A stretch of 39,081 nucleotides of DNA from Polyangiaceae bacterium. Its GTDB lineage: Bacteria > Myxococcota_A > Polyangia > Polyangiales > Polyangiaceae. Shown one piece after another: positions 558 to 27,320 of the stretch. A program made the translations under genes and the position numbers. Within the stretch, counting starts at the first letter, position 1; the number at the start of each line of letters is the position of its first letter. The stretch lies in assembly GCA_035762175.1 (NCBI GenBank), contig DASTPP010000105.1:1-39081 (forward strand), read 5' to 3'. The notes beneath the pieces were generated by a model. The model had not been told where the DNA came from, ran no database searches, and saw only the letters and a list, made by a program, of their open reading frames with translations.

Positions 558-993
558 CGCGAGCGCCACGACACCCGGATCAGGGCGGCCTGTCTTTGGC
601 GCGGGCGTCGGGCCGCCTGGGCTACGGCGACCTGGTGCTTTCGCGACGGCGCCAGGCCGCTCGGGTGCGGCAGCAGGCGTCGTTTTTTCGCGGGGGCCAG
701 CCGGCGCGGGTTTTGCTTACCAAGCCTCGCCGGCGGCCTCGCAAGCTGCCTGCGGAACCATGCTAAAAAACGTTCGGGTTCAAGTAGGGGTGTTTTTTTG
801 AACCCGCCCTTTGCGCGTCATGTCGCTCGGGCGGGGGTATTTTTTCACCCGCCGTCGGCGATCGAGCTCATGGTCCTTGGCCCGTTGAGAACGTCCTGGT
901 GAGCTTGCAAGCTCGAGCAGGGGTGTTTCTGCGGCCATGTCGGGTGCTCTCGGCCTTGAGTGTGGGTATGCACGTCGTGTACCCTCGGCGGCC

Positions 994-2637
994 ATGAGAG
1001 GCGTCGTTTTGCATCGTCGCGCCCTCGGGTGGCTTGCCTTGAGCTTGGCGGCGGTCGCTTGCCAAGAGGCAGAAGAAGACGTGGCGCCGGTCGAGGCGCC
1101 GCTTTGCACCGGCGAGGTCTCGCCGGGGCCCGCGCCGACGCGACGCCTCACCCGCTGGGAGTACAACAACACCGTCCGCGACCTGCTCGGCGACGAGACG
1201 CGCCCCGCCGACGCGTTCCCGGCCGACGAAGAGGCCCTCGGGTTTTCGAACAACGCGCTCGCCCTGACGACCTCGTCGACGCTGGTGCAGTCGTACATGC
1301 TGGCGTCCGAGGGGCTGTCCGAGCGGGCGACCGCGTCGCTGCCCGCGCTGCTGGGCTGCGACCCGGCGGCGGGCGAGGCCTGCGTCAAGCCCTTCGTCGC
1401 GTCGTTCGGGCGGCGGGCCTTCCGGCGGCCGCTCGCCGGCGACGAGGTCGAGGGCCTTCTCGGGCTCTACCGCGCGGCGAGCGCGGCGGGCGGGCCGCGC
1501 GAAGGGGTGCGCCAGATCATCGAGGCGATGCTCCAGTCGCCGCCCTTCCTCTATCGCCTCGAGCTCGAGGCGGCGCCCGAGGCCGGGGCGACCTCGCAGC
1601 CGCTCGGCCCCTGGCAGCTCGCCTCGCGGCTCTCGTACTTTCTGTGGGGCTCGATGCCCGACGACGAGCTCTTCGCCGCCGCCGACGCGGGGCGGCTCGG
1701 CACCCCCGACGAGGTGGCGGCGCAGGCGCGCCGCATGCTGGCCGACCCGAAGGCGCGCGAGCTGGTCCTGCGCTTCCACGAAGAGTGGCTCGACTACGAC
1801 CGCGTGCTCAGCGTCGGCCGGGGCAAGAGCGCGCAGTACTTCCCCGGCTGGGCGCCCGAGTACGCGCCGCTCATGCTCGAGGAGGCCCGCGCCTTCGTCG
1901 GGCACGTCGTCTTCGACGACCCGGCGGGCGACCTCGCGACGCTCTTGACCGCGCCCTACACCTTCGTCAACGGGCCGCTCGGCGCCTTCTACGGCTTCGA
2001 GGGCGCGCCCGCGGGCGAGGCCTTCGCGCGCGTCGAGCCGGGCGGGCGCGCGGGCGTCCTGACGCTCGGCGCGCTGTTGGCCTTCCACGCGCACTCCGAC
2101 CAGACCTCGCCCGTGCACCGGGGCCAGATGGTGCGCGAGCGCCTGCTCTGCGACCCGGTGCCGCCGCCGCCGCCCGAGTTCGACATCACGGTGCCCAAGG
2201 TCGACTCGGGCGCCACCGCGCGCGAGCGCTTCCGCGCCCACTCGCAGCAGCGCGTCTGCGCGGGCTGCCACGCGCTGCTCGACCCCGTCGGCTTCGGCTT
2301 CGAGAACTTCGACGGCGTCGGGCGCTACCGCGAGCTCGAGGCCGACGGCACGCCCGTCGACGCCTCGGGCAAGCTCACCGCGACCGACGTCGACGGCGAC
2401 TTCGTGGGCGTGCCCGCGCTCGCCGCCGCCCTCGCCCGGAGCGACCAGGTGCGAGGCTGTTACGTCACGCAGTGGTTCCGCTTCGCGCAGGGGCGCGCCG
2501 AGACCGAGCAAGACCGCTGCTCGCTCGAGGCGCTGCGCTCGGCCTTCGACGCCGCCGGCGGCAACGTCCGCGAGCTGCTCGTCTCGATGACCCAGACCGA
2601 CGCCTTCCTCTTCCGCCCGGCCGGGGGCGCGCCGTGA
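994..2637 (+). CDS. DUF1592/DUF1588/DUF1587-family (PSD1-like) lipoprotein
   Basis: ATG at 994 gives 'MRGVVLHRRALGWLALSLAAVAC', a lipoprotein signal with lipobox. Conserved blocks typical of the DUF1592/1588/1585 family are present: 'RLTRWEYNNTVRDLLG', 'FHEEWLDYDRV', 'CAGCHALLDPVGFGFENFDGVGRYR'. The family usually pairs with DUF1552. The stop overlaps the next gene start (GTGA). Confidence 0.75.
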   Translation: MRGVVLHRRALGWLALSLAAVACQEAEEDVAPVEAPLCTGEVSPGPAPTRRLTRWEYNNTVRDLLGDETRPADAFPADEEALGFSNNALALTTSSTLVQSYMLASEGLSERATASLPALLGCDPAAGEACVKPFVASFGRRAFRRPLAGDEVEGLLGLYRAASAAGGPREGVRQIIEAMLQSPPFLYRLELEAAPEAGATSQPLGPWQLASRLSYFLWGSMPDDELFAAADAGRLGTPDEVAAQARRMLADPKARELVLRFHEEWLDYDRVLSVGRGKSAQYFPGWAPEYAPLMLEEARAFVGHVVFDDPAGDLATLLTAPYTFVNGPLGAFYGFEGAPAGEAFARVEPGGRAGVLTLGALLAFHAHSDQTSPVHRGQMVRERLLCDPVPPPPPEFDITVPKVDSGATARERFRAHSQQRVCAGCHALLDPVGFGFENFDGVGRYRELEADGTPVDASGKLTATDVDGDFVGVPALAAALARSDQVRGCYVTQWFRFAQGRAETEQDRCSLEALRSAFDAAGGNVRELLVSMTQTDAFLFRPAGGAP

Positions 2638-4019
2638 GCCGCCCCCGCCTGCCCCGCCGCGCCCTCCTGCGGGGCGCCGGCGGCGTGCTCGTCTCGCTGC
2701 CGCTCTTCGAGAGCCTCGGCTGCGACGGCCGGCGGGGCCCGGCCCCGGGCGCCTCCAGGTCGCGCCTCGCCTTCCCCAAGCGCTTCATCGTCGTCTACAC
2801 GCCGAACGGCCAGTACGAGCCGCCCCCGACGCTCGACTTCGCCGGCACCACGTTCGAGCCGCTCGCGCCCTTCGTCCCGAAGCTCAACCTGGTGCGCGGG
2901 CTCGACATGTCGGTGCACGACGAGCCGCCCGGCGAGCCGCACCAGCAGGGCATGGCCTTCCTGACGGGGCGGCGGCTCAACGAGGGCACCTTCCTCGGCA
3001 GCGACTCGGCCTCGTACGCGGGCTGGGCGAGCGGCATCTCGGTCGACCAGGAGGTCGCCAAGGTGCTCTGCGTCGACACCCCCTACCGCTCGCTGCACCT
3101 CGGCGTCCAGTCGACGCTCTACGCCGGCACCGAGGTGCGCACCATCATCAGCTACGCCGGCTCCGACCAGCCCATCGCCAACGAGACGAGCCCCTTCGCC
3201 GTCTTCGACCGCATGTTCGCCCCCCTCGGCCCCGACGGCTCCGTCTCGGCCGAGCTGCGCGCGCGCCGCAAGTCGGTGCTCGACGTCGTCGGCAGGCAGT
3301 ACGAGTCGGTCAACGCCCGCCTCGGCGCCGCCGACCGGCAGAAGCTCGAGCAGCACCTCGCCTCCATCCGCGACGTCGAGGGGCGGCTGAGCCGGCAGGG
3401 CTCCTTCGTCGCCGCGGGCTGCAAGCGGCCCGAGCTGGGCGAGCCCGCCTTCGACCTGAACGATCCGGCCAATTTTCCCCTCATCGGCAAGCTGCAGACC
3501 GACCTGCTCGTCATGGCGCTCGCGTGCGATTTGACGCGCGTCGCCACCTTGCAGTGGTCCTCGTCGGCCAACAACCGGCCCTTCCCCTTCCTGAGCTACA
3601 ACGGCCAGCCCATCACCGGCGACGACCACCTGATGGGCCACTCGCCCGACTCGGACGTCGAGACCTGGGGCAAGCTCCGGGTCATCCGCCGCTGGTACCT
3701 CGAGCAGTTCGCCTACCTCCTGCGCAGCCTCGACTCCATCCAAGAGAGCGACGGCTCGACGATGCTCGACAACACCGCCGTCCTGCTCGGCAGCGAGCTC
3801 AGCCGCGGCAATACCCATAGCCACTCGAACATGAACTTCGTGCTGGCCGGCGGCGCCGCCGGCGCCTGGCGGACGGGCCGCTACCTCAACTACGAGGGCG
3901 TCGTGCCGCACAACAACCTGCTCGTCTCGATCCTCAACGGCATGGGCGTCGAGGGCACGACCTTCGGCGACCCCACCTACTGCACCGGGCCCCTCGCCGA
4001 ACTCACCCCGACGGGCTAG
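2634..4019 (+). CDS. DUF1552-domain protein with Tat-type signal
   Basis: GTG at 2634 overlaps the upstream stop, indicating translational coupling. The N-terminus 'VSRPRLPRRALLRGAGGVLVSLPLF' looks like a twin-arginine signal. The body ('FIVVYTPNGQ', 'WSSSANNRPFPF', 'GHSPDSD', 'THSHSNMNFVLAGG') matches the DUF1552 family that partners DUF1592 proteins. Confidence 0.75.
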   Translation: MSRPRLPRRALLRGAGGVLVSLPLFESLGCDGRRGPAPGASRSRLAFPKRFIVVYTPNGQYEPPPTLDFAGTTFEPLAPFVPKLNLVRGLDMSVHDEPPGEPHQQGMAFLTGRRLNEGTFLGSDSASYAGWASGISVDQEVAKVLCVDTPYRSLHLGVQSTLYAGTEVRTIISYAGSDQPIANETSPFAVFDRMFAPLGPDGSVSAELRARRKSVLDVVGRQYESVNARLGAADRQKLEQHLASIRDVEGRLSRQGSFVAAGCKRPELGEPAFDLNDPANFPLIGKLQTDLLVMALACDLTRVATLQWSSSANNRPFPFLSYNGQPITGDDHLMGHSPDSDVETWGKLRVIRRWYLEQFAYLLRSLDSIQESDGSTMLDNTAVLLGSELSRGNTHSHSNMNFVLAGGAAGAWRTGRYLNYEGVVPHNNLLVSILNGMGVEGTTFGDPTYCTGPLAELTPTG

Positions 4020-5743: not shown

Positions 5744-7402
<1,659 letters not shown>

Positions 7403-7502
7403 GGCCGGGCCCGGGCGCCCCCGCGACCCCGGGCGACGAGCGCGGCCCCCGACGCGGCCGGGGGCCCGCCCCGGGGCCGCCGCCGGCCCGCGGGCGCCGC
7501 GC

Positions 7503-8111
7503 TCAGATCTCGCCGAAGAGGTCTTTCATGCGCGACTCGAGCGCGACGGCGATCTTGTACAGGCTGGGGATGGACGCCGACGACTCGGCCCGCTCGATCT
7601 GCGAGAGCAGCGAGACCGAGAGGCCCGTGCGCTTGCTCATCTGCTTGAGCGTGAGCGAGCGCTCTTTGCGAAGGTTGCGGATGGTGTCGCCGATGATGCG
7701 GTGCAGCTCTTCCTCGGGCGTGCGCGAGAAGCCCTTGCGCTTCATCACCCGGCTGATGGCCTCGCGCAGCTCTTCGACCTGGAAGGGCTTCTTGATGTAG
7801 TCGACCGCGTCGAGCTGCATGCCCGCCACCGCCGACTCGAGGTTCGGGTAGCCGGTGAAGAGAATGACGGCGATGTCCGAGTCTTGCTTGCGGATGGTGC
7901 GCAAGAGCGAGATGCCGTCGATTTCCGGCATCATGACGTCCAAGATGACGAGGTGGTAGTCTTCGCGGCGCAGCTCCTCCTCGGCCTTGCGCGGGTCGGT
8001 GAGGGTCTGGACGACGAAGCCGTCTTTGTCGAGCAGGGTCTTGACGTATTCGCAGATGGCTTCGTCGTCGTCGATCACGAGTATCCGCAGCGAGGGCATC
8101 TGGACGGGCAT
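7503..8111 (-). CDS. Response regulator with REC receiver domain and C-terminal XRE-family HTH DNA-binding domain
   Basis: 'LRILVIDDDEAICEYV...HLVILDVMMPEIDGISLL...AVILFTGY...YIKKPF' is a canonical receiver domain with the phospho-acceptor Asp. The C-terminal 'LRKERSLTLKQMSKRTGLSVSLLSQIERAE' is an XRE/Cro-like HTH. The ORF runs to 8147 (GTG). In-frame ATGs at about 8111 and 8099 are more likely starts. Transcribed divergently from cheA. Confidence 0.8.
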   Translation of the reverse strand: MPVQMPSLRILVIDDDEAICEYVKTLLDKDGFVVQTLTDPRKAEEELRREDYHLVILDVMMPEIDGISLLRTIRKQDSDIAVILFTGYPNLESAVAGMQLDAVDYIKKPFQVEELREAISRVMKRKGFSRTPEEELHRIIGDTIRNLRKERSLTLKQMSKRTGLSVSLLSQIERAESSASIPSLYKIAVALESRMKDLFGEI

Positions 8112-8324
8112 GGTGGGTCTCGCAAAAGGGGGGGTGTTTCCAGTCACACTAAAACCAGTGCGGTCCCAGGGTCAAACCCTATGCGCCGGGCCTCGCGCAG
8201 GGCCGGGTTTGGGGCTAGGGTGGCGGCCAATGGCTTCGGCGGTTCGGGGCGCGCAGGCGGCCCCCCGGCGCCCGAGGGCGCCAGAGCGCGTTCGCGAGGG
8301 TTGTGTCCTTCGTGGGGGCCCCGC

Positions 8325-8362
8325 CCGAGGTGCGTGAGGTGCGTAAGGGTGCGATAAACGCT
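8325..8362 (+). promoter_or_regulatory. Triplicated GTGCG(T/A)NA direct repeat immediately upstream of cheA (candidate operator)
   Basis: 'gaGGTGCGTGAgGTGCGTAAGgGTGCGATAAac': three copies at 9-10 bp phasing, 20-50 bp upstream of the cheA GTG start. RBS 'gaaggggg' follows. Confidence 0.35.
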
Positions 8363-8379
8363 CGCGCGAAGGGGGCGCC

Positions 8380-10629
8380 GTGAACGAAGGCGTCGACCGG
8401 GCGAGAGACGAGTTCTTCGCCGAGGCGCAAGAGATCCTCGAGACGCTCTCGCGCGATCTCTTGTCGCTCGACGACCGGCTGCGGGCGGGCGAGGGCGACC
8501 CCGAGCAGATCAACGACGTCTTCCGCGGGGTGCACACGCTGAAGGGGCTGGCGGGGCTCTTCGGCGCGCGGCGCATGAGCGTCCTGTCGCACGAGCTCGA
8601 AGACCTGCTCGACGAGCTGCGCCTGGGCAAGCGCCCGCTGACGCGCGACACGCTCGACCTGCTCTTCGAGGCGATCGAGGTCTACGGCAAGCTCTTGCAC
8701 CTCGAGAAGGCGGGCGACCGGGGCGCGGCGCCCGAGCTCGACGCGCTGCTCGCGCGGCTCGGGGCGGCGACGGGGTCGGCGGGGCCCTCGGCCGAGGGCT
8801 CGGCGTCGGGGGCGTACGACCTCGACCCGAACCTGCTCGCGGTGCTGACCGAGTACGAAGAGCACCGGCTGCGCACGAACCTGCAGAACGGCTCGACGCT
8901 CTACCGGCTGCACGCGCGGTTCCGGCTCGCGTCGATCGACCAAGACCTCGACGATCTGAAGGCGAAGGCGCGCGGGCTCGGCGAGATCATCACGTACCTG
9001 CCGACGGGCGAGGGGGGCGACGCCGAGTCGATCGACCTCGACGTGCTGCTGGCGTCGAAGGCGACGGCCGACCAGGTGCGCGAGGCGCTGGGCGCGGGGC
9101 TCATCATCGAGGCGATGGCGCGGCGGCCCTTGCCCGACCCGCCGGGGCGGGCGTCGGGCGGGGCGCTGCCGCCGCCCTCGCCGCCGCCGTCCGAGCCCCC
9201 GCCGCCGCCGCCGCCCCGGCTGAGCGACCTGCCGCCGCCGCCGGCGCGCCCGGGGCCGCTCTCGGTGCCGGCGCCGGCGCCGGCGCGGGCCGCGCCGGCC
9301 GAGGCGCTCGAGGCGCCGGGGCGGCCGGGCGAGGCGGCGCGGGCGGGCGAGGGGGGGGCGGCGGTGGCCCCGGCCGGGGGCGGGGGCGGGTCGCTGCGCT
9401 CGGTCAGCCAGACGGTGCGGGTCGACATCCGCAAGCTCGACCACCTGATGACCATCGTGGGCGAGCTCGCGATCGTGCGCTCGTCGCTCGCGCGCCTGAC
9501 CGAGCGGGTGCGCGCCAGCGGCGCGATGCGCGAGGTCGGCTTCGAGCTGCACCGGCTGCAGCGCTCGTTCGAGCGGCAGCTCGGCGCCATGCAGGACGGC
9601 ATCCTCGAGGTGCGCATGGTGCCGATCGGGCAGATCTTCAGCAAGCTCGAGCGCGTGGTGCGGCAGGCGGGGCGCGAGGCGGGCAAGCAGCTGAACCTGG
9701 TCATCACCGGCGGCGACACCGAGGTCGACAAGCTGATCGTCGAAGAGCTGAGCGACCCGCTCGTGCACATCGTGCGCAACAGCATCGACCACGGCATCGA
9801 GCCGCGCGACGACCGGCTGCGGGTGGGCAAGCCCGAGGCGGGCACGATCGCGATCAACGCCTTCCAGAAGGGCAGCCACGTGCTCATCGAGCTCGAAGAC
9901 GACGGCCGGGGCATGGACCCGAACCGCCTGCTGCGGGTCGCGGTCGAGCGGGGCTTTCTGCCCGAGCGCGAGGCGCTCGAGCTCGGCCCGAAAGAGATTC
10001 TGAACCTCATCTTCTTGCCCGGCTTCACGACCAAGAGCTCGCCCGACATGCTGGCGGGCCGGGGCGTCGGCATGGACATCGTGCGGACGAACATCGCCCG
10101 GCTCGGCGGCGTCATCGACGTGCACAGCGAGCTCGGCATCGGCACGAAGATGACCATCACGCTGCCGATCACGCTCGCCATCTTGAGCGTGCTCATCGTC
10201 GAGGTCGCGGGCCAGGCCTTCGCGCTGCCGCTCTCGCACGTGCAGGAGGCGCTCGTGTTCGACGAGCGCGGGGTGCGGGCGATCGACGGCCGCGAGACGA
10301 TGACGATGCGCGGGGCGACGTTGCCGCTCGTGCGGCTCGGCCGCCTCTTCGGGCTCGAGCGCGGGGGCGGCGAGGGGCGGGGGCGGGGCTTCGTCGTGGT
10401 GGTGAACTCGCACACCCGGCGCCTGGGCATCGTGGTCGACCGGCTCGAGGGCCAGCAGGACATCGTCATCAAGCCGCTCGGCGCCTCGCTGCGCCGGGTG
10501 CGGGGCTTCGCGGGCGCGGCGGACCTGGGCGACCAGCGGGTGGGCCTGGTGCTCGACGCGCCGGCCATCCTCGAGGAGGCGCTGGCCGGGGCCGATCTGG
10601 GCAAGGCGTCGCTCCTGGGGCGGGCTTAA
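8380..10629 (+). CDS. cheA: Chemotaxis histidine kinase CheA
   Basis: N-terminal HPt domain 'FFAEAQEILETL...VFRGVHTLKGLAGLFG' with the phospho-His. A long Pro-rich linker follows. Dimerisation region 'TVRVDIRKLDHLMTIVGELAI', HATPase_c ('HIVRNSIDHGIE', 'ELEDDGRGMD', 'GRGVGMDIV') and C-terminal CheW-like domain are all present. No receiver domain. Confidence 0.92.
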   Translation: MNEGVDRARDEFFAEAQEILETLSRDLLSLDDRLRAGEGDPEQINDVFRGVHTLKGLAGLFGARRMSVLSHELEDLLDELRLGKRPLTRDTLDLLFEAIEVYGKLLHLEKAGDRGAAPELDALLARLGAATGSAGPSAEGSASGAYDLDPNLLAVLTEYEEHRLRTNLQNGSTLYRLHARFRLASIDQDLDDLKAKARGLGEIITYLPTGEGGDAESIDLDVLLASKATADQVREALGAGLIIEAMARRPLPDPPGRASGGALPPPSPPPSEPPPPPPPRLSDLPPPPARPGPLSVPAPAPARAAPAEALEAPGRPGEAARAGEGGAAVAPAGGGGGSLRSVSQTVRVDIRKLDHLMTIVGELAIVRSSLARLTERVRASGAMREVGFELHRLQRSFERQLGAMQDGILEVRMVPIGQIFSKLERVVRQAGREAGKQLNLVITGGDTEVDKLIVEELSDPLVHIVRNSIDHGIEPRDDRLRVGKPEAGTIAINAFQKGSHVLIELEDDGRGMDPNRLLRVAVERGFLPEREALELGPKEILNLIFLPGFTTKSSPDMLAGRGVGMDIVRTNIARLGGVIDVHSELGIGTKMTITLPITLAILSVLIVEVAGQAFALPLSHVQEALVFDERGVRAIDGRETMTMRGATLPLVRLGRLFGLERGGGEGRGRGFVVVVNSHTRRLGIVVDRLEGQQDIVIKPLGASLRRVRGFAGAADLGDQRVGLVLDAPAILEEALAGADLGKASLLGRA

Positions 10630-10630
10630 T

Positions 10631-10947
10631 TAAGATCCGGCCCCGGGGCGCGGCCGGCGGGCGGAGGGTAAGAACCGGCAAGATCCGGCCTCGGGGCGCG
10701 GCCAGCGGCCGGCGGGCACGGCTGGGGCCGGCGGCGGGCGCGGCGGGGGGCCCCGGCGGGCGCGGCGGGGGCCCCCGGCCGTGGGCGATGCGGCGAGGGG
10801 CGGCAGCGTGCGATGCAGCGGGGGCCCGGGGGTGGGCGCGGCGGTGGCCCCGGGGGCGGGCGATGTGGCGGGGGGCCCCGGGGGCGGGCGTGGCGGGGGC
10901 CCCGGCGGCGGGCGACGCGGCGGCCCGCCTATGGTAGAACGGACCTC
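10631..10947. repeat. GC-rich intergenic tandem-repeat block between cheA and cheW
   Basis: It begins with the palindrome TTAATTAA at the cheA stop. A 30-bp direct repeat 'aagatccggcc(c/t)cggggcgcggcc(g/a)gcgg' follows, then about 7 degenerate tandem copies of a roughly 24-bp unit 'ggcgggcg(n)ggcgggggccccgg'. Confidence 0.6.
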
Positions 10948-11436
10948 GTGGCGGACCTCGTGCGGGCGAACGAACCTGCCCTTCGGCGCGCGAGCGCGGG
11001 CGGCGGGGCGCTCACCGAGTATTTGTCGTTCCGGCTGGGCGACGAGCTGTTCGCGCTGCCGCTGCGCAACGTCCAAGAGCTGTACCCGTACAAGCCGCTG
11101 ACGTACGTGCCGCGCGCGCCCGAGGACGTCATCGGCATCTTGTTCGTGCGCGGCCTGCTCGTGACGGTCATCGATCTGCGGCGCCGGCTGCGGCTGACGC
11201 CCGCCGACGAGCGCGCGCGCGGGCGCATCTTGCTGGTGCCGGGGCCGGAGGGCGAGACGTTCGGGCTCTTGGTCGACGAGGTCGAGCAGGTCTACCGCCT
11301 CGCCGAGTCGGAGGTCGAGGCGGCGGCGAACGTGCTCGGGGGCAACACGGCCGAGTACGTGGCGGGCATCGGGCGGCGCGACGACCAGGTGATCGTGCTG
11401 CTCGCCCTCGGGCCCCTGCTGGCGGCGGGCCGATGA
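10948..11436 (+). CDS. cheW: Chemotaxis coupling protein CheW (copy 1)
   Basis: 'LTEYLSFRLGDELFALPLRNVQEL...IGILFVRGLLVTVIDLRRRL...GLLVDEVEQVYRL' is a CheW-like domain. GTG start chosen at 10948; an alternative is 10960. The stop overlaps the next gene start (ATGA). Confidence 0.8.
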   Translation: MADLVRANEPALRRASAGGGALTEYLSFRLGDELFALPLRNVQELYPYKPLTYVPRAPEDVIGILFVRGLLVTVIDLRRRLRLTPADERARGRILLVPGPEGETFGLLVDEVEQVYRLAESEVEAAANVLGGNTAEYVAGIGRRDDQVIVLLALGPLLAAGR

Positions 11437-11948
11437 CCGAGTCGCGCGCGCGCTCCGGGCCGCAAAAGACCCTGGTGGGCTTCGAGCTGGGCGACGTACA
11501 TTACGCCGTCGACATTGCGCGCGTGATGCAGATCGTCAAACCCCTGCCGATGACGGTGCTGCCCCGCATGCCCGAGGGGCTCGTCGGGGTTTGTGAGTAC
11601 CGGGGCATCGTGACGGCGGTGGTCGACCTGCGGACCCACTTCGGGCTCGAGCCGAAGCCGGTGACGCGCCAGACGAAGTGGCTGGTGCTCGACGTGAGCG
11701 GCCGGCCGCTGGCGCTGGTGGTCGACGGGGTGACCGACGTGTTCGGCGCGCCGGGCGAGCCCTTGCGGGCGCCGCCCTCGTTCGGGGTCGAGCGGCAGGG
11801 CATCTTGGGGGTGGCGTCGCACGGCGCGCGCATGACCTTCGTGCTCGACACGGGGCGCTTCCAGGCGCTGGCGCAGATGCCGCAGTCGATGTCGGTGCCG
11901 CGGCTGAGCGGCGCCTCGCCGCCGGTGGGGGCCGGCTCGAGGTCGTGA
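11433..11948 (+). CDS. cheW: Chemotaxis coupling protein CheW (copy 2)
   Basis: 'LVGFELGDVHYAVDIARVMQIVKPLPMTVLPRMPEGLVGVCEYRGIVTAVVDLR...LALVVDGVTDV' is a CheW-like domain. ATG overlaps the upstream stop, and its own stop overlaps the cheR GTG. Confidence 0.8.
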   Translation: MTESRARSGPQKTLVGFELGDVHYAVDIARVMQIVKPLPMTVLPRMPEGLVGVCEYRGIVTAVVDLRTHFGLEPKPVTRQTKWLVLDVSGRPLALVVDGVTDVFGAPGEPLRAPPSFGVERQGILGVASHGARMTFVLDTGRFQALAQMPQSMSVPRLSGASPPVGAGSRS

Positions 11949-12835
11949 GCCCCCGGCGCGCCGCCCCCGCCTCGTCGGTGCAGGCGCCCGACGCGGCCGA
12001 GATGCGCCAGCTCGCCGAGGTCTTCCGGCAGGAGGCCGGGCTCGTCTTCGCCGACGACTCGGGCTTCGTGCTCGAGCGGCGGCTGCGCGAGCGGGTGGCG
12101 GCGCTGGGGCTGCCCTCGTTCGCGCACTACGTCGACTACCTGCGCTACGACCCGGGCGGGGCGCGCGAGCTCGAAGAGGCGCTCGAGCTCGTCACGACGC
12201 ACGAGACGTACTTCTTCCGCGAGGAGTACCAGCTGCGGGCCTTCCGCGACGAGGTGGTGCCGCGGCTGCGGCAGCTCGCCGGCGCGCGCCGGCGCCTCTC
12301 GGTCTGGAGCGCGGGCTGCGCGACGGGCGAGGAGGCCTACACGGTGGCGATGCTGCTCGCGCACGGGGCGCTGCCGCCGGGCTGGCAGGCGCGCGTCCTC
12401 GGCAGCGACCTGTCGCGCCGCTGCGTCGCCGCGGCGCGCCGGGCGGTCTACGGGCCGGCGGCCTTCCGCTGCGTGCCCTTCGAATTCCGCCAGCAGTACT
12501 TCGCCGAGACCGCCGAGGGCACGGCCGTTTCGCCCCCGATCCGGGCGATGTGCTCGTTCGTCCAGCTGAACTTGCTCGACCGCGACCGGCTCGCGGTGGT
12601 AGGTCGGGTCGACGCCATCTTCTGCCGCAATGTGCTCATCTACCTCGACCAGGAGGCACGGCGCCGGGTGCTCGACAACGTCTACGAGTGTCTCTTGCCG
12701 GGCGGCTTTCTGATGCTCGGCCACTCCGAATCGCTCCTGCACGTGCCGAGCGGCTTCGAGCCGGTGCGCCTGCGCGACGACCTCGTCTACCGAAAGCCCG
12801 AGGGCGCCCAGGCGCGCCGGGGGGGGGCGCCATGA
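11945..12835 (+). CDS. cheR: Chemotaxis protein methyltransferase CheR
   Basis: 'FADDSGFVLERRLRERV...THETYFFRE...LSVWSAGCATGEEAYTVAMLL...IFCRNVLIYLD' carries the CheR N-terminal and SAM-binding domains. Translationally coupled at both ends. Confidence 0.87.
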   Translation: MSPRRAAPASSVQAPDAAEMRQLAEVFRQEAGLVFADDSGFVLERRLRERVAALGLPSFAHYVDYLRYDPGGARELEEALELVTTHETYFFREEYQLRAFRDEVVPRLRQLAGARRRLSVWSAGCATGEEAYTVAMLLAHGALPPGWQARVLGSDLSRRCVAAARRAVYGPAAFRCVPFEFRQQYFAETAEGTAVSPPIRAMCSFVQLNLLDRDRLAVVGRVDAIFCRNVLIYLDQEARRRVLDNVYECLLPGGFLMLGHSESLLHVPSGFEPVRLRDDLVYRKPEGAQARRGGAP

Positions 12836-13926
12836 GCGAGACCGGCGAGCCCAAGCGCATCCGCGTGCTCATCGTCGACGACTCGGCCTACAACCGCAAG
12901 CACATCGCCGACATCTTGAGCTCGAGCGGCGAGATCGAGGTGGTGGGCAAGGCGGGCGACGGCGAAGAGGCCCTGCGCCTCGCGACCCAGCTCAAGCCCG
13001 ACGTCATCACGCTCGACCTCGAGATGCCGCGCATGGACGGCTTCACCTTCCTGCGCATCATCATGGCGCGCCAGCCGACGCACGTCATCGTGGTCTCGAG
13101 CTACAAGCAGACCGAGAACACGCTCAAGGCGATCGAGCTCGGCGCGCTCGACTTCGTGAAGAAGCCGAAGAGCCAGCTGTCGCCGGACGTGACCGAGATC
13201 CGCGCCGAGCTCTTGCAGAAGGTGCTGATGGCCCCGAAGGCGCGCGTGCGGCGGGCGCCGCCCCCGCGCGCCGCGCTGCCCTCGCTGCCCCAGGCGCCGC
13301 AGGCGCCCGCGCTGACCCAGGTGCACCCGCGCGTGGTCGTCGGCATCGCCTCGAGCACGGGGGGCCCGACGGCGCTGCTCGACATCTTCGGGCGGCTGCC
13401 GCGGCTGCCGGCGGCGCTGCTCATCGCGCAGCACATGCCCGACAAGTTCACGCGCACCTTCGCCGAGCGGCTCGACCGCAAGTGCCGCGAGAACCGCGAC
13501 GAGAGCAAGGTGGCCTTCCGCGTGTCCGAGGCGCAGGACAACGACCCGGTGCTCGCCGGCACGGCGTTCGTCTGCCCCGGCCGCCAGTGCATGGAGCTGA
13601 TGGCCCTGCCGAACAACGAGTACCGCCTGCGCACGGGCTCGCCGAGCGGCTCGGACCGCTACGTGCCGAGCGCCGACCGCCTCCTGCGCAGCGTGGCGGC
13701 GGTGGCGGGGGCGCGCTCGGTGGCCGTCGTGCTGACGGGCATGGGCGACGACGGCGTCGAGGGGGCGCGGGCGGTGCGCGACGCGGGCGGGGTGGTGCTG
13801 GTCGAGAGCCCCGAGAGCGCCGTGGTCTTCGGCATGCCGGGGGCGGTCGTGCGCGCGGGGCTCGCGCACCACGTGCTCTCGCTGCCGGCGATCGTCGACT
13901 TCTTGAGCTCGCACGTGCCGCTCTGA
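12832..13926 (+). CDS. cheB: Protein-glutamate methylesterase/response regulator CheB
   Basis: N-terminal REC 'IRVLIVDDSAYNRKHI...VITLDLEMPRMDGFTFL'. C-terminal methylesterase 'VVVGIASSTGGPTAL', 'LLIAQHMP', 'VVLTGMGDDG'. ATG overlaps the cheR stop. Confidence 0.9.
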   Translation: MSETGEPKRIRVLIVDDSAYNRKHIADILSSSGEIEVVGKAGDGEEALRLATQLKPDVITLDLEMPRMDGFTFLRIIMARQPTHVIVVSSYKQTENTLKAIELGALDFVKKPKSQLSPDVTEIRAELLQKVLMAPKARVRRAPPPRAALPSLPQAPQAPALTQVHPRVVVGIASSTGGPTALLDIFGRLPRLPAALLIAQHMPDKFTRTFAERLDRKCRENRDESKVAFRVSEAQDNDPVLAGTAFVCPGRQCMELMALPNNEYRLRTGSPSGSDRYVPSADRLLRSVAAVAGARSVAVVLTGMGDDGVEGARAVRDAGGVVLVESPESAVVFGMPGAVVRAGLAHHVLSLPAIVDFLSSHVPL

Positions 13927-20517: not shown

Positions 20518-21600
20518 TCAGGGGGTGCGGCGGAAGACGAACCAGCGCAGCTCGACCGGCGGGTCGGCGTTGTCGGGCATCGTCATGATGTCGCGCCCGG
20601 TCGCCCAGTTGATGTACCAGCCGGTGGGCGGCCAGTCGGCGGCGGGGACGAACTTCTTTTCGTACTCCATCACCGACTCGTCGGACACGAGCTCGAAGGG
20701 CAGCCCGCGGATGGCGGCGGCGAAGTCTTGCCGGGTGAAGGTCGAGGACCACACCGCCTCGGAGTATTCGCGCACGATCTGCTCGAGCTCGTAGTCTTCG
20801 TCGCTGACGAAGGTGTTGCAGACGACGCAGCCGCCCGGCGCCATCGCGGCCCCGAGCCGCTCGAAGAGCGAGCGCAGCTGCGCCACCGACCGGAAGTGCG
20901 TGAGCACCTCGGAGATGACGACGACCTTGTAGTAGTTCTGCTTCTCGGACAGGTCGGCCGTGTGCACGTCGGCGTTGATGATGTTGACCTTGAGCTTATC
21001 TTTCTCGGCCGCCTCGCGGATGATGTCGGTGAACGAGGCCGTCATCTCGAGCGCGTCGACGGGGTGGCCGATGCGCGCGAGCGGCAGCGAGTTGCGCCCC
21101 GTGCCCGCGCCGATGTCGAGCACCGGCACCTCGGACGGGTCGCCCAGCTCGGCCGCCACGTGCAAGAGCTTCTGGTCGGGGTGCTTGCCGAAGAGCGGCG
21201 GCTTCTTGTTGGCGACCCAGAGGTCGTACTGCTCGCTGAGCGAGGGCACCACGTACCGGATGTGGTACTGGATGCCGCGCTTGGGCGGCGGCTGCGTCTC
21301 CCAGCGCACGCGCAGCTCGGCGATGGCCGAGGCGCGAAAGCCCTCGTCGAGCTGCTCGCGCAAGAGGCCCCGCAGGTGGTCGAGCTCCGGCTCGGTGAAG
21401 GGCTTGCCGAACGCGGTGAAGATGGCCTTGAAGCCGTCCATGTAGTGGTCGATGAGCGAGGGCGCGCAGGGCATCGCCATCTCGCCCTTGCCGCGGATGC
21501 GGCGGTCGACCTTCTGGTAGATGCCCTCGCGGATGCGCGTCGTGTTCGCCTCGCGCGCTCGCTGCTTGGGGCCGGTGATGACGGGCTTTTTCTTTTTCAT
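20518..21600 (-). CDS. Class I SAM-dependent methyltransferase, TehB-like fold, with ~120-aa Lys-rich N-terminal extension
   Basis: ATG at 21600 gives 'MKKKKPVITGPKQRAREANTTRIREG...'. The SAM-binding motif I 'VLDIGAGTGRNSLPLA' resembles TehB 'LDLGCGNGRNSLYLA'. The C-terminal region has no known counterpart. Confidence 0.75.
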   Translation of the reverse strand: MKKKKPVITGPKQRAREANTTRIREGIYQKVDRRIRGKGEMAMPCAPSLIDHYMDGFKAIFTAFGKPFTEPELDHLRGLLREQLDEGFRASAIAELRVRWETQPPPKRGIQYHIRYVVPSLSEQYDLWVANKKPPLFGKHPDQKLLHVAAELGDPSEVPVLDIGAGTGRNSLPLARIGHPVDALEMTASFTDIIREAAEKDKLKVNIINADVHTADLSEKQNYYKVVVISEVLTHFRSVAQLRSLFERLGAAMAPGGCVVCNTFVSDEDYELEQIVREYSEAVWSSTFTRQDFAAAIRGLPFELVSDESVMEYEKKFVPAADWPPTGWYINWATGRDIMTMPDNADPPVELRWFVFRRTP

Positions 21601-21784
21601 GGCGGCGGGGGCACTCTTAGGCCGGAGCGGGCGAAGGGTCCAGCGTGGCCCGGGGCGGGCCGTCGGGCTAGCGCCTCGGCGCGCGCCGGGCGGGGGCCCC
21701 GCGACCCGCTGGCGGCCCCGGCGGGGGCGGCGGCGGGGGGGGGCGCCCGGGGGCGGCGGGGGCCTCTGGGGGCCGGCCAAGGGG

Positions 21785-21822
21785 GCTGACATTGAACTAC
21801 TGAACGGATTGACAGTATAAGG
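21785..21822 (+). promoter_or_regulatory. AT-rich sigma70-like promoter (TTGAAC-N18-TATAAG) upstream of the DGQHR gene
   Basis: 'cTGACAttgaactactgaacggaTTGACAgTATAAGg' contains TTGAAC (21792-21797) and TATAAG (21816-21821), with additional TTGACA/CTGACA hexamers. This is an isolated AT-rich island in a 72% GC background, 60 bp upstream of the ATG at 21884. An RBS-like 'gagg' sits 8 nt before the start. Confidence 0.5.
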
Positions 21823-21883
21823 CCTGCGTGCTTGGTTAGGGCCCTGGGGCGGCCCGAGGGGCCCGGCCCCTCACGAGGCCGCC

Positions 21884-23041
21884 ATGCTCGCCACGCAGAT
21901 CCGCCAAAAAGACGGGGTGTTTTATTTCGTCGCCTACCCGGCCGAAGACCTCTTGCGTCGGGTGCGGTTCATCAGCCGCTTCTACGGCGACGAGGGCGCG
22001 CGCATCGACGCCGAAGAGGTCGACGCGGCCGACGAGGTGGGGCGCTTCATCGCCCGCATCGAGCGCAGCGACCGGTCGTTCCAGCGGGCTTTGTCGAAGC
22101 GCAAGGTGGCGGCGATCGAGAACTTCTACGAGACGGCGATGAGCCAGCCGCCGATTCCGGGCACGGTGCTGCTCTTCACGCCCGAGGCGCTGCGCTTCGA
22201 CCCGGTGGGGGCGTTCGACAACGTGGGCGACCTGCAAGAGCCGAACGAGAAGTACCTCATCATCGACGGCCAGCACCGGCTGGCGGCGCTGCACTTCTAC
22301 GCGCAGCGCCACCCGCACGAGGCGCGCACGCTGCACGTGCCCTGCGTCGTGTTCGACGGCCGCAGCGAAGACTTCGCGGTCGAGATGTTCGTCACCATCA
22401 ACTCGACGCCGACGCGCATCAACAAGAGCCACCTCGTCGACCTGTACGAGCGGGTCTCGTGGGCGGCGCCCGACCGGCGCCTGGCGGCGAAGGTGGCCGA
22501 GATGCTCTACGAGCGGGCCGACAGCCCGCTGCGCTACAAGATCAACCGCCTCGGCGGGCGCAGCCGGCAGGCCAAGTGGGTGCTGCAGGCCGAGCTCTTC
22601 AACGAGCTCTTGCGCTGGGTGCAGGCCGAGGGGGCGCCGGGCGGCCGCTCGCCGGCCGCGGCGGCCGAGTCGTTCTATGGCCCCATCCGCGACTTCTTCC
22701 GGGCGGCCGAGAAGGTCTGGGGCGAGGCCTGGGGCAACCCCGCGTTCATGGTGACCAAGCCCGTCACCATCAAGGCGATGCTGCGGGTGTGCGCGGCGCT
22801 CGCGAAGCAAGACGCCGAGCCCGACGAGGGGCGGCAGAGGCGGTGGCAAGAGCGGCTCGAGCCGTGGTCGCAGCTCGCGCGCGACTTCCGGTCCGAGGGG
22901 TTTTATGAGCGCTTCGCCGCGCGCGGCCAGGTCGAGCGCGTGGGCCGCGTGGCGCGCGAGCTCGCCCGCCGCGTCGACGTGACGCTGAACTCGCCGCGCC
23001 GCCCGGGCGGCTCGTCGGCGATGGCCGAAGCGGCCGAGTAA
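21884..23041 (+). CDS. DGQHR-domain protein (DndB-like, ParB/Srx nuclease-fold family)
   Basis: Signature 'KYLIIDGQHRLAALHF' (DGQHR motif) plus downstream 'FAVEMFVTINSTPTRINKSHLVDLYERV' (FxxIN...Q/H..L block), as in DndB and DpdB family proteins. 385 aa. Confidence 0.8.
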   Translation: MLATQIRQKDGVFYFVAYPAEDLLRRVRFISRFYGDEGARIDAEEVDAADEVGRFIARIERSDRSFQRALSKRKVAAIENFYETAMSQPPIPGTVLLFTPEALRFDPVGAFDNVGDLQEPNEKYLIIDGQHRLAALHFYAQRHPHEARTLHVPCVVFDGRSEDFAVEMFVTINSTPTRINKSHLVDLYERVSWAAPDRRLAAKVAEMLYERADSPLRYKINRLGGRSRQAKWVLQAELFNELLRWVQAEGAPGGRSPAAAAESFYGPIRDFFRAAEKVWGEAWGNPAFMVTKPVTIKAMLRVCAALAKQDAEPDEGRQRRWQERLEPWSQLARDFRSEGFYERFAARGQVERVGRVARELARRVDVTLNSPRRPGGSSAMAEAAE

Positions 23042-25436: not shown

Positions 25437-27206
25437 TCAGTTGGGGCCGAAGGCGGGGGGCGAGGCGGCGGCGGACTCTTCGCCGACGGCGTCGAGCAGC
25501 TCGCAGGCGAGGGCGCCGACCTCGACGTCTTCGTCTTCTTCGGCGACGCGCTCGATGAGCTCGAGGGCGCCCGGCCAGCTCGCGCCGCTCAGCGACATCA
25601 GGGCGATCTTTCGCAGCTCGGGCTCGGGGTGGGCGAGGGCGCGCTCGAAGGCGTCGCGCCACTCGGCGCCGGGCTCGGGGGGGCTGCTGGCGCCGAGGGC
25701 GGCGATGGCGAAGGCGGTCTCGGCGTAGGTGCCCGCGTCGGCGAGCATGGCGAGCAGGGTGCGGGGGCCGAGCAGCGGCAGCGCGGGGCGCAAGGCGTTG
25801 GCGAAGGCGGCGGGGTCGGGGCCCTCGAAGCGCAGGAGGGCGACGCCGAGGACGGGGTCTTCTTGGTAGCGGATGAAGTGCGTGTTGGCCTCGTCGCTGA
25901 AGGCGAGCTCGTAGCGCTTGTCGCCCTCGGCGTCGCCGGAGGCGGAGAGCCAGAGCCAGCGCCGCTCGCGGGCGACGGCCTTGACCTCTTCGCGCGTGAC
26001 GTCGGAGGCGAGGGCGACCGAGAGCGGGCCGCGCGCGGGCGCCTCGAAGGGCGGGGCGGGGTCGTCTTCGCCGGCGAGGCGGCGGCGCAGGAAGGGGTCG
26101 CCCTCGGCGCGGGTGCGGTGCGGCTCGAGCGGCTCGCCGCGCCAGCGGGCGACGGCGACGGCGAGGCGGCGCACGCGCGCGTCGGGGTGGGCGAGGGCCT
26201 GGGCGAGCGCGCCGGCGAGCGGGGGGCCGCCGAGGGTGCCGAGCACGTAGAGCGGGAAGGCGACGTGCAGCGGGTGCGGCGGCGGCTCGCCGGGCTCGTT
26301 CAAGAGCTCGGCGAGCACCTGGGCGGCCGAGGCGGGGCCGAAGGGGGCGAGGGCGGCGACGACGTCGAGGGGCAGGTCGTCGGGGTAGTCGGCGCCGACG
26401 ACTTCGTTCCACCGGCGGAGGGCGGCGGCGGCGGCGCGCACGGGCCGGTAGCGGACCTCGACGACGAGGTGGTCGCCGTGGGCCTCGGCGCGCAGGACCG
26501 ACTTCGACAGGCGCGTGCGCACCGAGACGACGGGCAGCTCGCCGGGCATCTGGGCCATCGCCTCTTGGCGGCGCAAGAGGTAGGCGAGCGCGCCCTCGGG
26601 CCGCGCCATGGACTCGGCGAAGGGCTCGTCGAGGTAGGGGTCGCCCGGGCTCGAGGTGCCCCAGGAGAGGCCGTCGCAGAAGGGGTCGGTCGCGAAGTGC
26701 CGCTCGAAGTGCGCGAGCCCGGCGCCGTCGTCGCGGCCGGCGAAGAGGCGCAGCCGCCCCGGCAGCCCGGCCTCGGGCTCGGCCCGGGGCACCAGGTGCT
26801 CGTCGAGCGAGCGGCGGACGCGCTCGGCCGTCGCGCCGGCGTCGACCCAGAGCAGCGGCGAGAGCGTGTCGGAGAGCGCGAGCCAGAGCCGGTCGGGCGC
26901 GTCGGTGTTGACGAGCCAGAGCGGCGTCGCCGAAGGCGGCCGGAGCGGCCCGCGCTCGCTGCCGCCGACCCAGCGCCCGCGGTACGGCACGGGCGGGCCC
27001 TCGGCGACGGGCCAGAAGCAGGCGAGGCGGGCGCGCACGACGGCCTCGACGTCGGGGCGCAGCCCCTCGCCGAGCAGCGGCCCCTTCGGGTCGCGCAGCA
27101 CGTTCAGGCGCGCCTGGGCCTCGGCGGCCGACAGCCAGCGCAGCGATCGGAGCGAGGGGTGCGAGCGCAGGGAGACGAGCCAGAGCGGAGGCGAGAACGA
27201 CAGCAT
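25437..27206 (-). CDS. Hypothetical protein, 589 aa (possible HEAT/ARM-like C-terminus)
   Basis: Long ORF with coherent codon bias and no recognisable catalytic motif: 'MLSFSPPLWLVSLRSHPSLRSL...HFIRYQEDPVLGVALLRFEGPD...'. Its C-terminal 'AFGPN*' is duplicated at the MITE-like element. Confidence 0.55.
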   Translation of the reverse strand: MLSFSPPLWLVSLRSHPSLRSLRWLSAAEAQARLNVLRDPKGPLLGEGLRPDVEAVVRARLACFWPVAEGPPVPYRGRWVGGSERGPLRPPSATPLWLVNTDAPDRLWLALSDTLSPLLWVDAGATAERVRRSLDEHLVPRAEPEAGLPGRLRLFAGRDDGAGLAHFERHFATDPFCDGLSWGTSSPGDPYLDEPFAESMARPEGALAYLLRRQEAMAQMPGELPVVSVRTRLSKSVLRAEAHGDHLVVEVRYRPVRAAAAALRRWNEVVGADYPDDLPLDVVAALAPFGPASAAQVLAELLNEPGEPPPHPLHVAFPLYVLGTLGGPPLAGALAQALAHPDARVRRLAVAVARWRGEPLEPHRTRAEGDPFLRRRLAGEDDPAPPFEAPARGPLSVALASDVTREEVKAVARERRWLWLSASGDAEGDKRYELAFSDEANTHFIRYQEDPVLGVALLRFEGPDPAAFANALRPALPLLGPRTLLAMLADAGTYAETAFAIAALGASSPPEPGAEWRDAFERALAHPEPELRKIALMSLSGASWPGALELIERVAEEDEDVEVGALACELLDAVGEESAAASPPAFGPN

Positions 27207-27261
27207 GAGGGGCCCTCGATCGTGCGCCCTTCGGCGCGCGGCGCAAGGCGAGCGCAGGGGC

Positions 27262-27320
27262 CGCGCGGCCCCTTAAATGTAACGGGAAATACCGTTGTTA
27301 AAAATGTAACGTTGTGGGGT
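27262..27320. promoter_or_regulatory. AT-rich island with GC palindrome and 2x 'AAATGTAACG' direct repeat
   Basis: 'caGGGGCCGCGCGGCCCCttAAATGTAACGggaaataccgttgttaaAAATGTAACGttgtgg'. A 16-bp perfect palindrome is followed by two copies of AAATGTAACG about 27 bp apart, with an inner 'aacgg..ccgtt' dyad. It lies in the 700-bp spacer between the divergent 589-aa gene and the 162-aa/MVP genes. Confidence 0.4.

Follow-up and report, generated by a model that had tools for sequence, protein, structure and literature searches.

A contig of 39,081 bp from a Polyangiaceae metagenome-assembled genome carries a chemosensory operon, cheA-cheW1-cheW2-cheR-cheB. It stands head-to-head with a gene for a response regulator that joins a receiver (REC) to a Cro/XRE-type helix-turn-helix (HTH). 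The whole contig was analysed and is called the window here; what can be inspected ends with it. The operon looks like a reduced member of the type known as Che8 in Myxococcus xanthus and as the beta group in delta-Proteobacteria, without cheY and without a gene for a HEAT-repeat protein. It is tentatively proposed, with somewhat less than even confidence, that the REC-XRE regulator is a conserved neighbour of this operon in one lineage and not its dedicated output. Several observations suggest that the regulator stands apart from the che operon. Among the 80 best regulator loci found in genomes, 78 have no che gene inside 10 kb and cheA is near the regulator in the other two. A putative promoter of its own precedes the regulator gene, and its receiver resembles those of OmpR/PhoB/NtrC-type regulators. 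The ratio of nonsynonymous to synonymous substitution (dN/dS) between the window and its closest relative, locus L081, is 0.035 for this gene.

The che operon and its relatives

The G+C content of the window is 72-79%. Gene calls were guided by G+C at third codon positions (GC3) and domains were assigned with Pfam. The che genes and the other features are listed in Table 1. CheA begins with a P1/Hpt domain (H52 in the motif HTLKG), followed by an alpha/beta mid-domain (approximately residues 136-245), a Pro-rich linker, and the P3, P4, and P5 domains. CheB matches its NCBIfam family with 344 bits, which exceeds the cut-off. All five genes are intact, with their catalytic motifs and a normal GC3 codon bias. 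Against L081, dN/dS is 0.30-0.44 for the che genes and 0.26 for hutU, and the dN of the che genes is approximately ten times that of the regulator. The regulator and the che block are flanked by hutU and a glutamate dehydrogenase gene.

A first-pass annotation of the window, made from its letters, described gene overlaps at every boundary of the operon. This is correct for three of the four junctions, each with an overlap of 4 nt: cheW1/cheW2 (ATGA, 11433-11436), cheW2/cheR (GTGA, 11945-11948), and cheR/cheB (ATGA, 12832-12835). It does not apply to cheA, which ends at a TAA stop codon (10627-10629) and is separated from cheW1 by 318 bp (10630-10947). A GC-rich tandem repeat lies within this spacer and reads as a Gly/Arg-rich tract in the frame of cheW1. 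A longer open reading frame for cheW1, starting at 10672 or 10813, would give the protein a low-complexity N-terminus rich in Gly and Arg, which the homologues do not have. The GTG start at 10948 is supported by an alignment with eight homologues (alignment A2). In relatives the cheA-cheW1 junction measures 0-100 bp; in L081 it is 98 bp and has no array.

The gene content given in the first-pass annotation, with a receiver-less CheA, a divergent REC-XRE gene, and neither mcp nor cheY in the window, was borne out by Pfam and tblastn. No signalling domain of a methyl-accepting chemotaxis protein (MCP) was found in the window by Pfam, which covered the operon and approximately 25 other genes, or by six-frame tblastn with the signalling domain of Tsr (E < 5). 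A stand-alone CheY was not found in the window by Pfam or by six-frame tblastn with a Che8-type CheY and with Escherichia coli CheY (E < 5). Only two receivers are present, those of the REC-XRE regulator and of CheB.

The absence of an mcp gene had been presented as a special property of this cluster. The literature already gives it as a trait of the Che8/beta type, and it is thus no peculiarity of the window locus. The beta-group che clusters of delta-Proteobacteria are mcp-less (Tran et al., 2008, PMC2577667). Che8 of C. coralloides has no MCP (PMC6194562). The Che8 cluster of M. xanthus (MXAN_4759 to MXAN_4751) encodes CheY8b, CheA8, CheW8b, CheW8a, two non-che products, CheR8, CheB8, and CheY8a, with no Mcp8 (PMC3945109), and its function is unknown (PMC9040617). 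The window operon shares with this type a CheA made of P1, P3, P4, and P5 with no fused receiver, followed by two cheW genes, cheR, and cheB in the same order, and it is likewise mcp-less. It differs in that the window and its clade have no cheY directly upstream of cheA, where CheY8b is encoded, have no HEAT gene of approximately 690 codons, and are arranged head-to-head with a REC-XRE gene. The overlap of cheW2 and cheR leaves no HEAT gene between cheW and cheR in the window; this gene is not part of the published definition of Che8. The assignment to this type follows gene order and published descriptions; the window CheA is a putative orthologue of CheA8 (MXAN_4758) and of the CheA of the Geobacter beta group. 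The mcp-less cluster type of unknown function was therefore already known, and what is new is its CheY-less, HEAT-less form beside a REC-XRE regulator.

Relatives of CheA were drawn from metagenomes and genomes and annotated by tblastn, and 41 CheAs were placed in a neighbor-joining tree. The window's clade is monophyletic in this tree. It is sister to a canonical clade (CheA 52-58% identical) with 19 loci, including Labilithrix luteola, in which cheY lies directly upstream of cheA. Where the contig is long enough, the order in the sister clade is cheY-cheA-cheW-cheW-HEAT-cheR-cheB, with no mcp gene and with a HEAT-repeat protein (approximately 690 aa) of phycobilin-lyase/NblB type. Relatives from the Nannocystales (45-47% CheA identity) have this order and a trailing cheY, and so match the Che8 cluster of M. 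xanthus in gene order. Plesiocystis is a member of the Nannocystaceae. The genus is listed with a beta-group cluster (PMC2577667). In still more distant relatives of CheA, an mcp gene precedes the HEAT gene. No homologue of the HEAT protein of the Labilithrix cluster was found in the window. A HEAT_2 protein encoded in the window (25437-27272) was considered as a relocated partner and rejected, as it does not significantly resemble the HEAT protein of these clusters. The sister-clade cluster also resembles the Che7/Cpc7 system of M. xanthus, with its CheY and HEAT-repeat protein, as far as Darnell et al. (2014) is represented in PMC9040617 and PMC6194562. According to the same accounts, Che7 has its own Mcp7, and it differs from the window cluster, which has neither a CheY nor a HEAT protein.

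The mid-domain of CheA (approximately residues 136-250; window 8785-9129; LTEYEEHRLR...GEIITYLPTG) is very conserved and recurs in every relative, including those with a CheA of 39% identity. In an alignment of P1 to P3, P1 and the mid-domain are conserved to an equal degree in the window's clade and in the sister clade. An AlphaFold2 model of the mid-domain (pLDDT 82) is ferredoxin-like. A Foldseek comparison of this model with the PDB gave nothing at E ≤ 0.001 and no CheA P2 domain in the top 50, and no sequence match identified it as P2, the CheY-docking domain, either.

In the tree the window's clade contains the window, L081, L082, L164, L165, L166 (identical to L001), L167 (identical to L168), and L018. 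Two further loci outside the tree, L169 and L170 (identical to L171), were assigned to the clade by their layout and by the "QVEEL" signature of their regulators. All loci of the clade with a cheA have no cheY, no HEAT gene, and a REC-XRE gene divergently upstream. The five-gene operon is found in nine of the ten che-adjacent loci, down to 60% CheA identity. In L165, L167, L169, and L170, a gene for an alpha/beta-hydrolase lies between the regulator and cheA as the first gene of the che operon (9051-10001, 9229-9990, 8422-9450 on the minus strand, and 8921-9745 on the minus strand, respectively). The stop codon of the hydrolase gene overlaps or abuts the cheA start, and the window and L081 do not have this gene. 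In Labilithrix a hydrolase gene occurs slightly upstream of cheY. The cheA of L169 (6122-8418, minus strand) is present as two open reading frames, one for an Hpt-only protein of 174 aa and one for P3-P5 with 584 aa, and the kinase is either truly split or disrupted by a frameshift or by faulty assembly. In one member of the regulator's clade, L020/L172 (also L173), the regulator is not accompanied by che genes. Nested in the canonical clade, L091 has undergone a separate loss of cheY and the HEAT gene. It lacks a REC-XRE neighbour, and a gene for an FHA protein lies upstream.

The REC-XRE regulator and its control region

The first-pass annotation placed the regulator at 7503-8147. Its start is most likely the ATG at 8111 and not the GTG at 8147, because the length then fits nearly all homologues (4287 at E ≤ 1e-10, mostly of 202 aa). 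The GTG would also fall upstream of the predicted promoter. The predicted phospho-acceptor is D58. Residues D14/D15/D16, D58, T86, and K108 are invariant in an alignment of the family (alignment A1) and Y105 is conserved, so that the protein has every residue required for phospho-acceptance.

A genome scan for the regulator gave at least 600 pattern matches, of which at least 589 encode a relative, and the 80 best loci (L001-L080; 66-74% identity) were kept. Nearly all of these are labelled as Polyangiaceae, Polyangium, Sorangium, Minicystis, Byssovorax, Labilithrix, or Myxococcales. Their neighbourhoods vary and most are without a conserved adjacent kinase. A homologue outside this group, with 54% identity, is an orphan as well. 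In seven Sorangium genomes, a PAS-GAF-HisKA-HATPase-REC hybrid kinase is encoded upstream of the regulator orthologue on the same strand. This kinase has approximately 930-1050 aa and its gene lies approximately 0.8-3.8 kb upstream (L029, L032-L034, L037, L038, and L041).

A REC-XRE output beside a CheA had been offered as a different wiring. The REC-XRE architecture is already known from DigR of M. xanthus, an orphan REC + HTH_Xre regulator that is phosphorylated by SgmT, an orphan GAF hybrid kinase (PMC3509222), and the window regulator belongs to a family that is mostly orphan. DigR and the window regulator share an N-terminal receiver, a C-terminal Cro/C1 (XRE) HTH, and the lack of an adjacent cognate kinase. 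The likeness was judged by architecture and published description. SgmT is unlinked, whereas the Sorangium orthologues adjoin their PAS-GAF hybrid kinase. The Sorangium kinase recalls SgmT but has no GGDEF domain, and it is a candidate for the cognate kinase of the regulator family. Look-ups of ten distant regulator homologues, in a representative library and in clusters, gave no named Myxococcus member. As far as its homologues indicate, the regulator is an ancestral, very strongly conserved orphan of DigR architecture, found across the Polyangiaceae.

The top matches of the regulator receiver in the PDB and NCBIfam are OmpR/PhoB/NtrC-type regulators. E. coli CheY structures stand near the bottom of the best 60 PDB matches, and CheY is not among the best 25 NCBIfam families. 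The CheY of the sister clade, unlike this receiver, has CheY as its best match. A rewiring of the receiver toward CheY was considered. Five receiver positions (12, 23, 43, 113, and 115), lying in alpha1 and in the beta5-alpha5 region, set the regulators of the window's clade apart from the remaining 77 orthologues, and the residues of the clade (V12, V23, A43, E113, and L115) agree with the consensus of the lost CheY. This signal was rejected because outgroup REC-XRE proteins mostly carry the clade-specific residues: 26 more distant homologues mostly share those at 12, 43, 113, and 115, with position 23 being ambiguous. The residues thus appear to be retained ancestral states.

The space between the divergent genes holds a putative promoter of the regulator (Table 1). 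An imperfect palindrome of 19 bp with the consensus GTTnnAGTGnCACTnnAAC (8137-8155) overlaps its -10 element. Together, promoter and palindrome stand before the regulator orthologue at 69 of 85 loci, whether che genes adjoin or not, and form a single high-scoring site in the whole window. They are the sole spacer element common to members of the clade, and they lie at the regulator end. In many loci a second, related box (TCTAGTGACGTGGTAAC) occurs approximately 27 bp further upstream of the palindrome. The element is plausibly the regulator's own promoter with an autoregulatory operator. It differs from the DigR site, TAATC-N14-GATTA, which has five matches in the window compared with 8.4 expected, every one intragenic and thus without enrichment.

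Close to cheA, the first-pass annotation had pointed to a triplicated repeat as a possible autoregulatory site. The repeat is real, a tandem array with units of 9-10 bp and with GTGCGNNA at 8330, 8339, and 8349, and Tandem Repeats Finder (TRF) reports it at 8327-8353 with a period of 9 and 2.9 copies. As a conserved operator it was rejected, since it is absent or unrecognisable in other clade members and in L081, even though the CheA of L081 is 85% identical; a regulatory role is therefore without support. Scans of 7400-8500 for consensus sigma-70 promoters and for terminators found none, and an Rfam scan of the whole window gave no match.

Relation between the regulator and the operon

The identities and order of the genes, their distribution over the clade, and the conservation statistics are observations; the signalling steps of the operon, as well as the missing link between CheA and the regulator, are inferred. 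One or more unlinked MCPs would assemble with CheA and both CheW proteins. For adaptation, CheR would methylate and CheB would demethylate these receptors. The phosphate on H52 of the CheA P1 domain would go to CheB and also to some receiver protein whose gene lies elsewhere. In this Polyangiaceae lineage the operon has shed the cheY and the HEAT-repeat gene that its relatives kept, and the regulator most likely retains a classical, unlinked histidine kinase as its partner. An unlinked output has precedents: the orphan regulator on which CheA8 of M. xanthus reportedly acts is not linked to it (PMC9040617), and SgmT, the kinase of DigR, is itself an orphan (PMC3509222). The same is implied by L091, given its loss of cheY and the HEAT gene with no REC-XRE neighbour.

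Several observations weigh against this reading. The clade with the regulator neighbour is the clade that lost cheY and the HEAT gene, which fits a replacement of the output. Ten of the clade's eleven distinct loci keep the head-to-head layout of regulator and che genes, at CheA identities as low as 58%, and the flanking hutU and glutamate dehydrogenase genes are less consistently kept than the regulator-cheA junction. In L018, only cheA (7696-9924, minus strand; 742 aa with all domains) remains beside the regulator (10001-10606, plus strand). No cheW, cheR, or cheB was found there within 10 kb, and the neighbours are ybbR, cdaA, and folP. Neither the 39-kb contig nor the 10 kb around the loci of the relatives yielded an alternative receiver protein. 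The assignments to the Che8 and DigR families, finally, were made by gene order, architecture, and descriptions, and are to be taken as probable.

These observations suggest that the CheY/HEAT output could have been swapped for the adjacent regulator. CheA would then phosphorylate the regulator, or remove its phosphate as CheA3 does with CrdA, and transcription would come under receptor control, with a classical kinase possibly kept as a second input. This is possible but doubtful. In its favour, the clade is monophyletic in CheA and the adjacency coincides with the loss of cheY and the HEAT gene, L018 retains just cheA and the regulator, and the regulator is able, by its residues, to accept phosphate. 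The che genes, all of them intact, are under purifying selection (dN/dS below 1), so that some output is needed. There is also a precedent in the CheY-less Che3 system with its DNA-binding output CrdA (PMC3147164). However, the regulator is ancestral, found throughout its family, and almost unchanged in this clade, and the few differences in its receiver are ancestral residues in a domain of OmpR/NtrC type rather than CheY type. Regulator and che genes are divergent and so not co-transcribed, a hydrolase gene intervenes in four loci, and one clade member has the regulator with no che genes. In L091 cheY and the HEAT gene are lost as well and no such neighbour is present, and the literature documents unlinked outputs of Che8-type kinases (PMC9040617). 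The adjacency in the clade traces to a single ancestral event and therefore counts as one observation. Of the pairing between CheA and the regulator that the first-pass annotation suggested, the conserved layout holds up; evidence of rewiring in the sequences did not survive the outgroup control.

The Che3/CrdA-CrdS system of M. xanthus is the closest likeness for a direct link. Like the window, it has a cheY-less che operon adjoining a gene for a DNA-binding response regulator (PMC3147164). There the regulator is taken as the output, and it is suggested that a classical kinase and CheA jointly set its phosphorylation (PMC3147164). The systems differ in that CrdA is an NtrC-type sigma-54 activator, whereas the regulator of the window carries an XRE HTH without an AAA+ domain, and in that the Che3 operon encodes two MCPs (PMC3147164) and the window operon none. 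M. xanthus has five hybrid CheA-receiver kinases, among which CheA3 is included by elimination from lists (PMC9040617, PMC3945109). CheA3 would thus carry a receiver, in contrast to the CheA of the window. The likeness of the window to Che3/CrdA is one of gene content and layout.

Another link between the two could be transcriptional, with the regulator binding the palindrome in the shared control region and controlling both its own gene and the che operon. A 19-bp palindrome suits a dimeric HTH protein, its overlap with the -10 element and its conservation are consistent with an operator, and the divergent orientation is found throughout the clade. In L166/L001 the entire spacer between regulator and cheA is only approximately 75-110 bp, so that the palindrome is necessarily near the cheA promoter. 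In the window, on the other hand, the predicted site is approximately 225 bp from the cheA start, it is further away in the loci with a hydrolase gene, and the rest of the window, the vicinity of cheA included, has no second copy. Loci with no che operon conserve the palindrome equally well, so that it presumably serves the regulator's own promoter. Such a link is considered unlikely. It is more improbable still, to the point of being nearly dismissed, that the operon lost its output with cheY and the HEAT gene and is drifting toward loss. Decay would agree with the high dN of the che genes relative to the regulator, the repeat expansion inside the window operon, the split cheA of L169, and the cheA of L018 with no cheW, cheR, or cheB adjacent. 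The five genes nonetheless keep their catalytic motifs and GC3 bias, their dN/dS is similar to that of hutU, and the full operon is maintained in nearly all che-adjacent loci.

Che8/beta systems are widespread in myxobacteria and Geobacter and have no established function or output. The lineage of the window is one in which CheY and the HEAT protein were naturally lost, the kinase, couplers, and adaptation enzymes are intact, and one DNA-binding response regulator adjoins. There is a modest chance that a Che8/beta pathway has here dropped its CheY-HEAT output and feeds, as kinase or phosphatase, a DigR-like REC-XRE master regulator beside a classical kinase. If this were true, it would be the first assignable output for a class of unknown function, and a CheA would for the first time be seen to act on a transcription factor of Cro/XRE type. 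The pathway might also be tied to the control of extracellular-matrix genes, an idea that comes from preliminary unpublished data linking a Geobacter beta cluster to the matrix and from the regulation of matrix by DigR. The principle of Che3/CrdA, an array and a classical kinase acting on one transcription factor, would then extend to another class of regulator. If CheA does not act on the regulator, as is tentatively favoured here, the operon would be nothing more unusual than a reduced operon of Che8 type, and a caution that synteny throughout a clade can be a single event and not independent evidence of coupling.

Features and other genes of the window

Table 1. Features of the che operon, the divergent regulator gene, and the spacers of the window (positions in the 39,081-bp contig).
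Feature	Position	Strand	Product length	Description
REC + HTH_XRE response regulator	7503-8111	-	202 aa	Pfam Response_reg 3.4e-31, HTH_3 1.7e-10, HTH_26/HTH_31
Putative regulator promoter and candidate operator	8135-8175	-		-35 TTGACC (8175-8170), 18-nt spacer, -10 TAGTGT (8151-8146)
Three GGTGCG(T/A)NA tandem units	8327-8357	+		23-53 nt upstream of the cheA start
cheA	8380-10629	+	749 aa	Pfam Hpt, H-kinase_dim, HATPase_c, CheW; no receiver domain
GC-rich tandem repeat	10724-10926	+		TRF; approximately 24-25 bp, approximately 8 copies, consensus CCGGGGGCGGGCGTGGCGGGGGCC; within the cheA-cheW1 spacer
cheW1	10948-11436	+	162 aa	Pfam CheW 9.4e-31; GTG start from homology
cheW2	11433-11948	+	171 aa	Pfam CheW 1.4e-25
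cheR	11945-12835	+	296 aa	Pfam CheR 5.1e-51 and CheR_N
cheB	12832-13926	+	364 aa	Receiver and methylesterase; CheB_methylest 7.5e-51, Response_reg 1.1e-24

There are a number of other genes in the window. A pair of genes at 937-4019 (plus strand) encodes a protein with DUF1587/1592/1595/1588/1585 (PSD/PSCyt) and a DUF1552 (HXXSHH) protein, and the pair is conserved in L081. Planctomycetes and myxobacteria typically have such pairs. The gene at 21821-23041 (plus strand) encodes a protein that combines DndB-like and GmrSD_N-like domains. Its gene adjoins that of a 450-aa S-adenosylmethionine-dependent methyltransferase (20518-21870, minus strand), and the two may be a DNA-modification or defence-related pair. 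The gene at 28576-31200 (plus strand) encodes an 874-aa bacterial protein similar to the major vault protein, with a major-vault-protein shoulder, Vault_3 repeats, and an SPFH/Band_7-like stretch.

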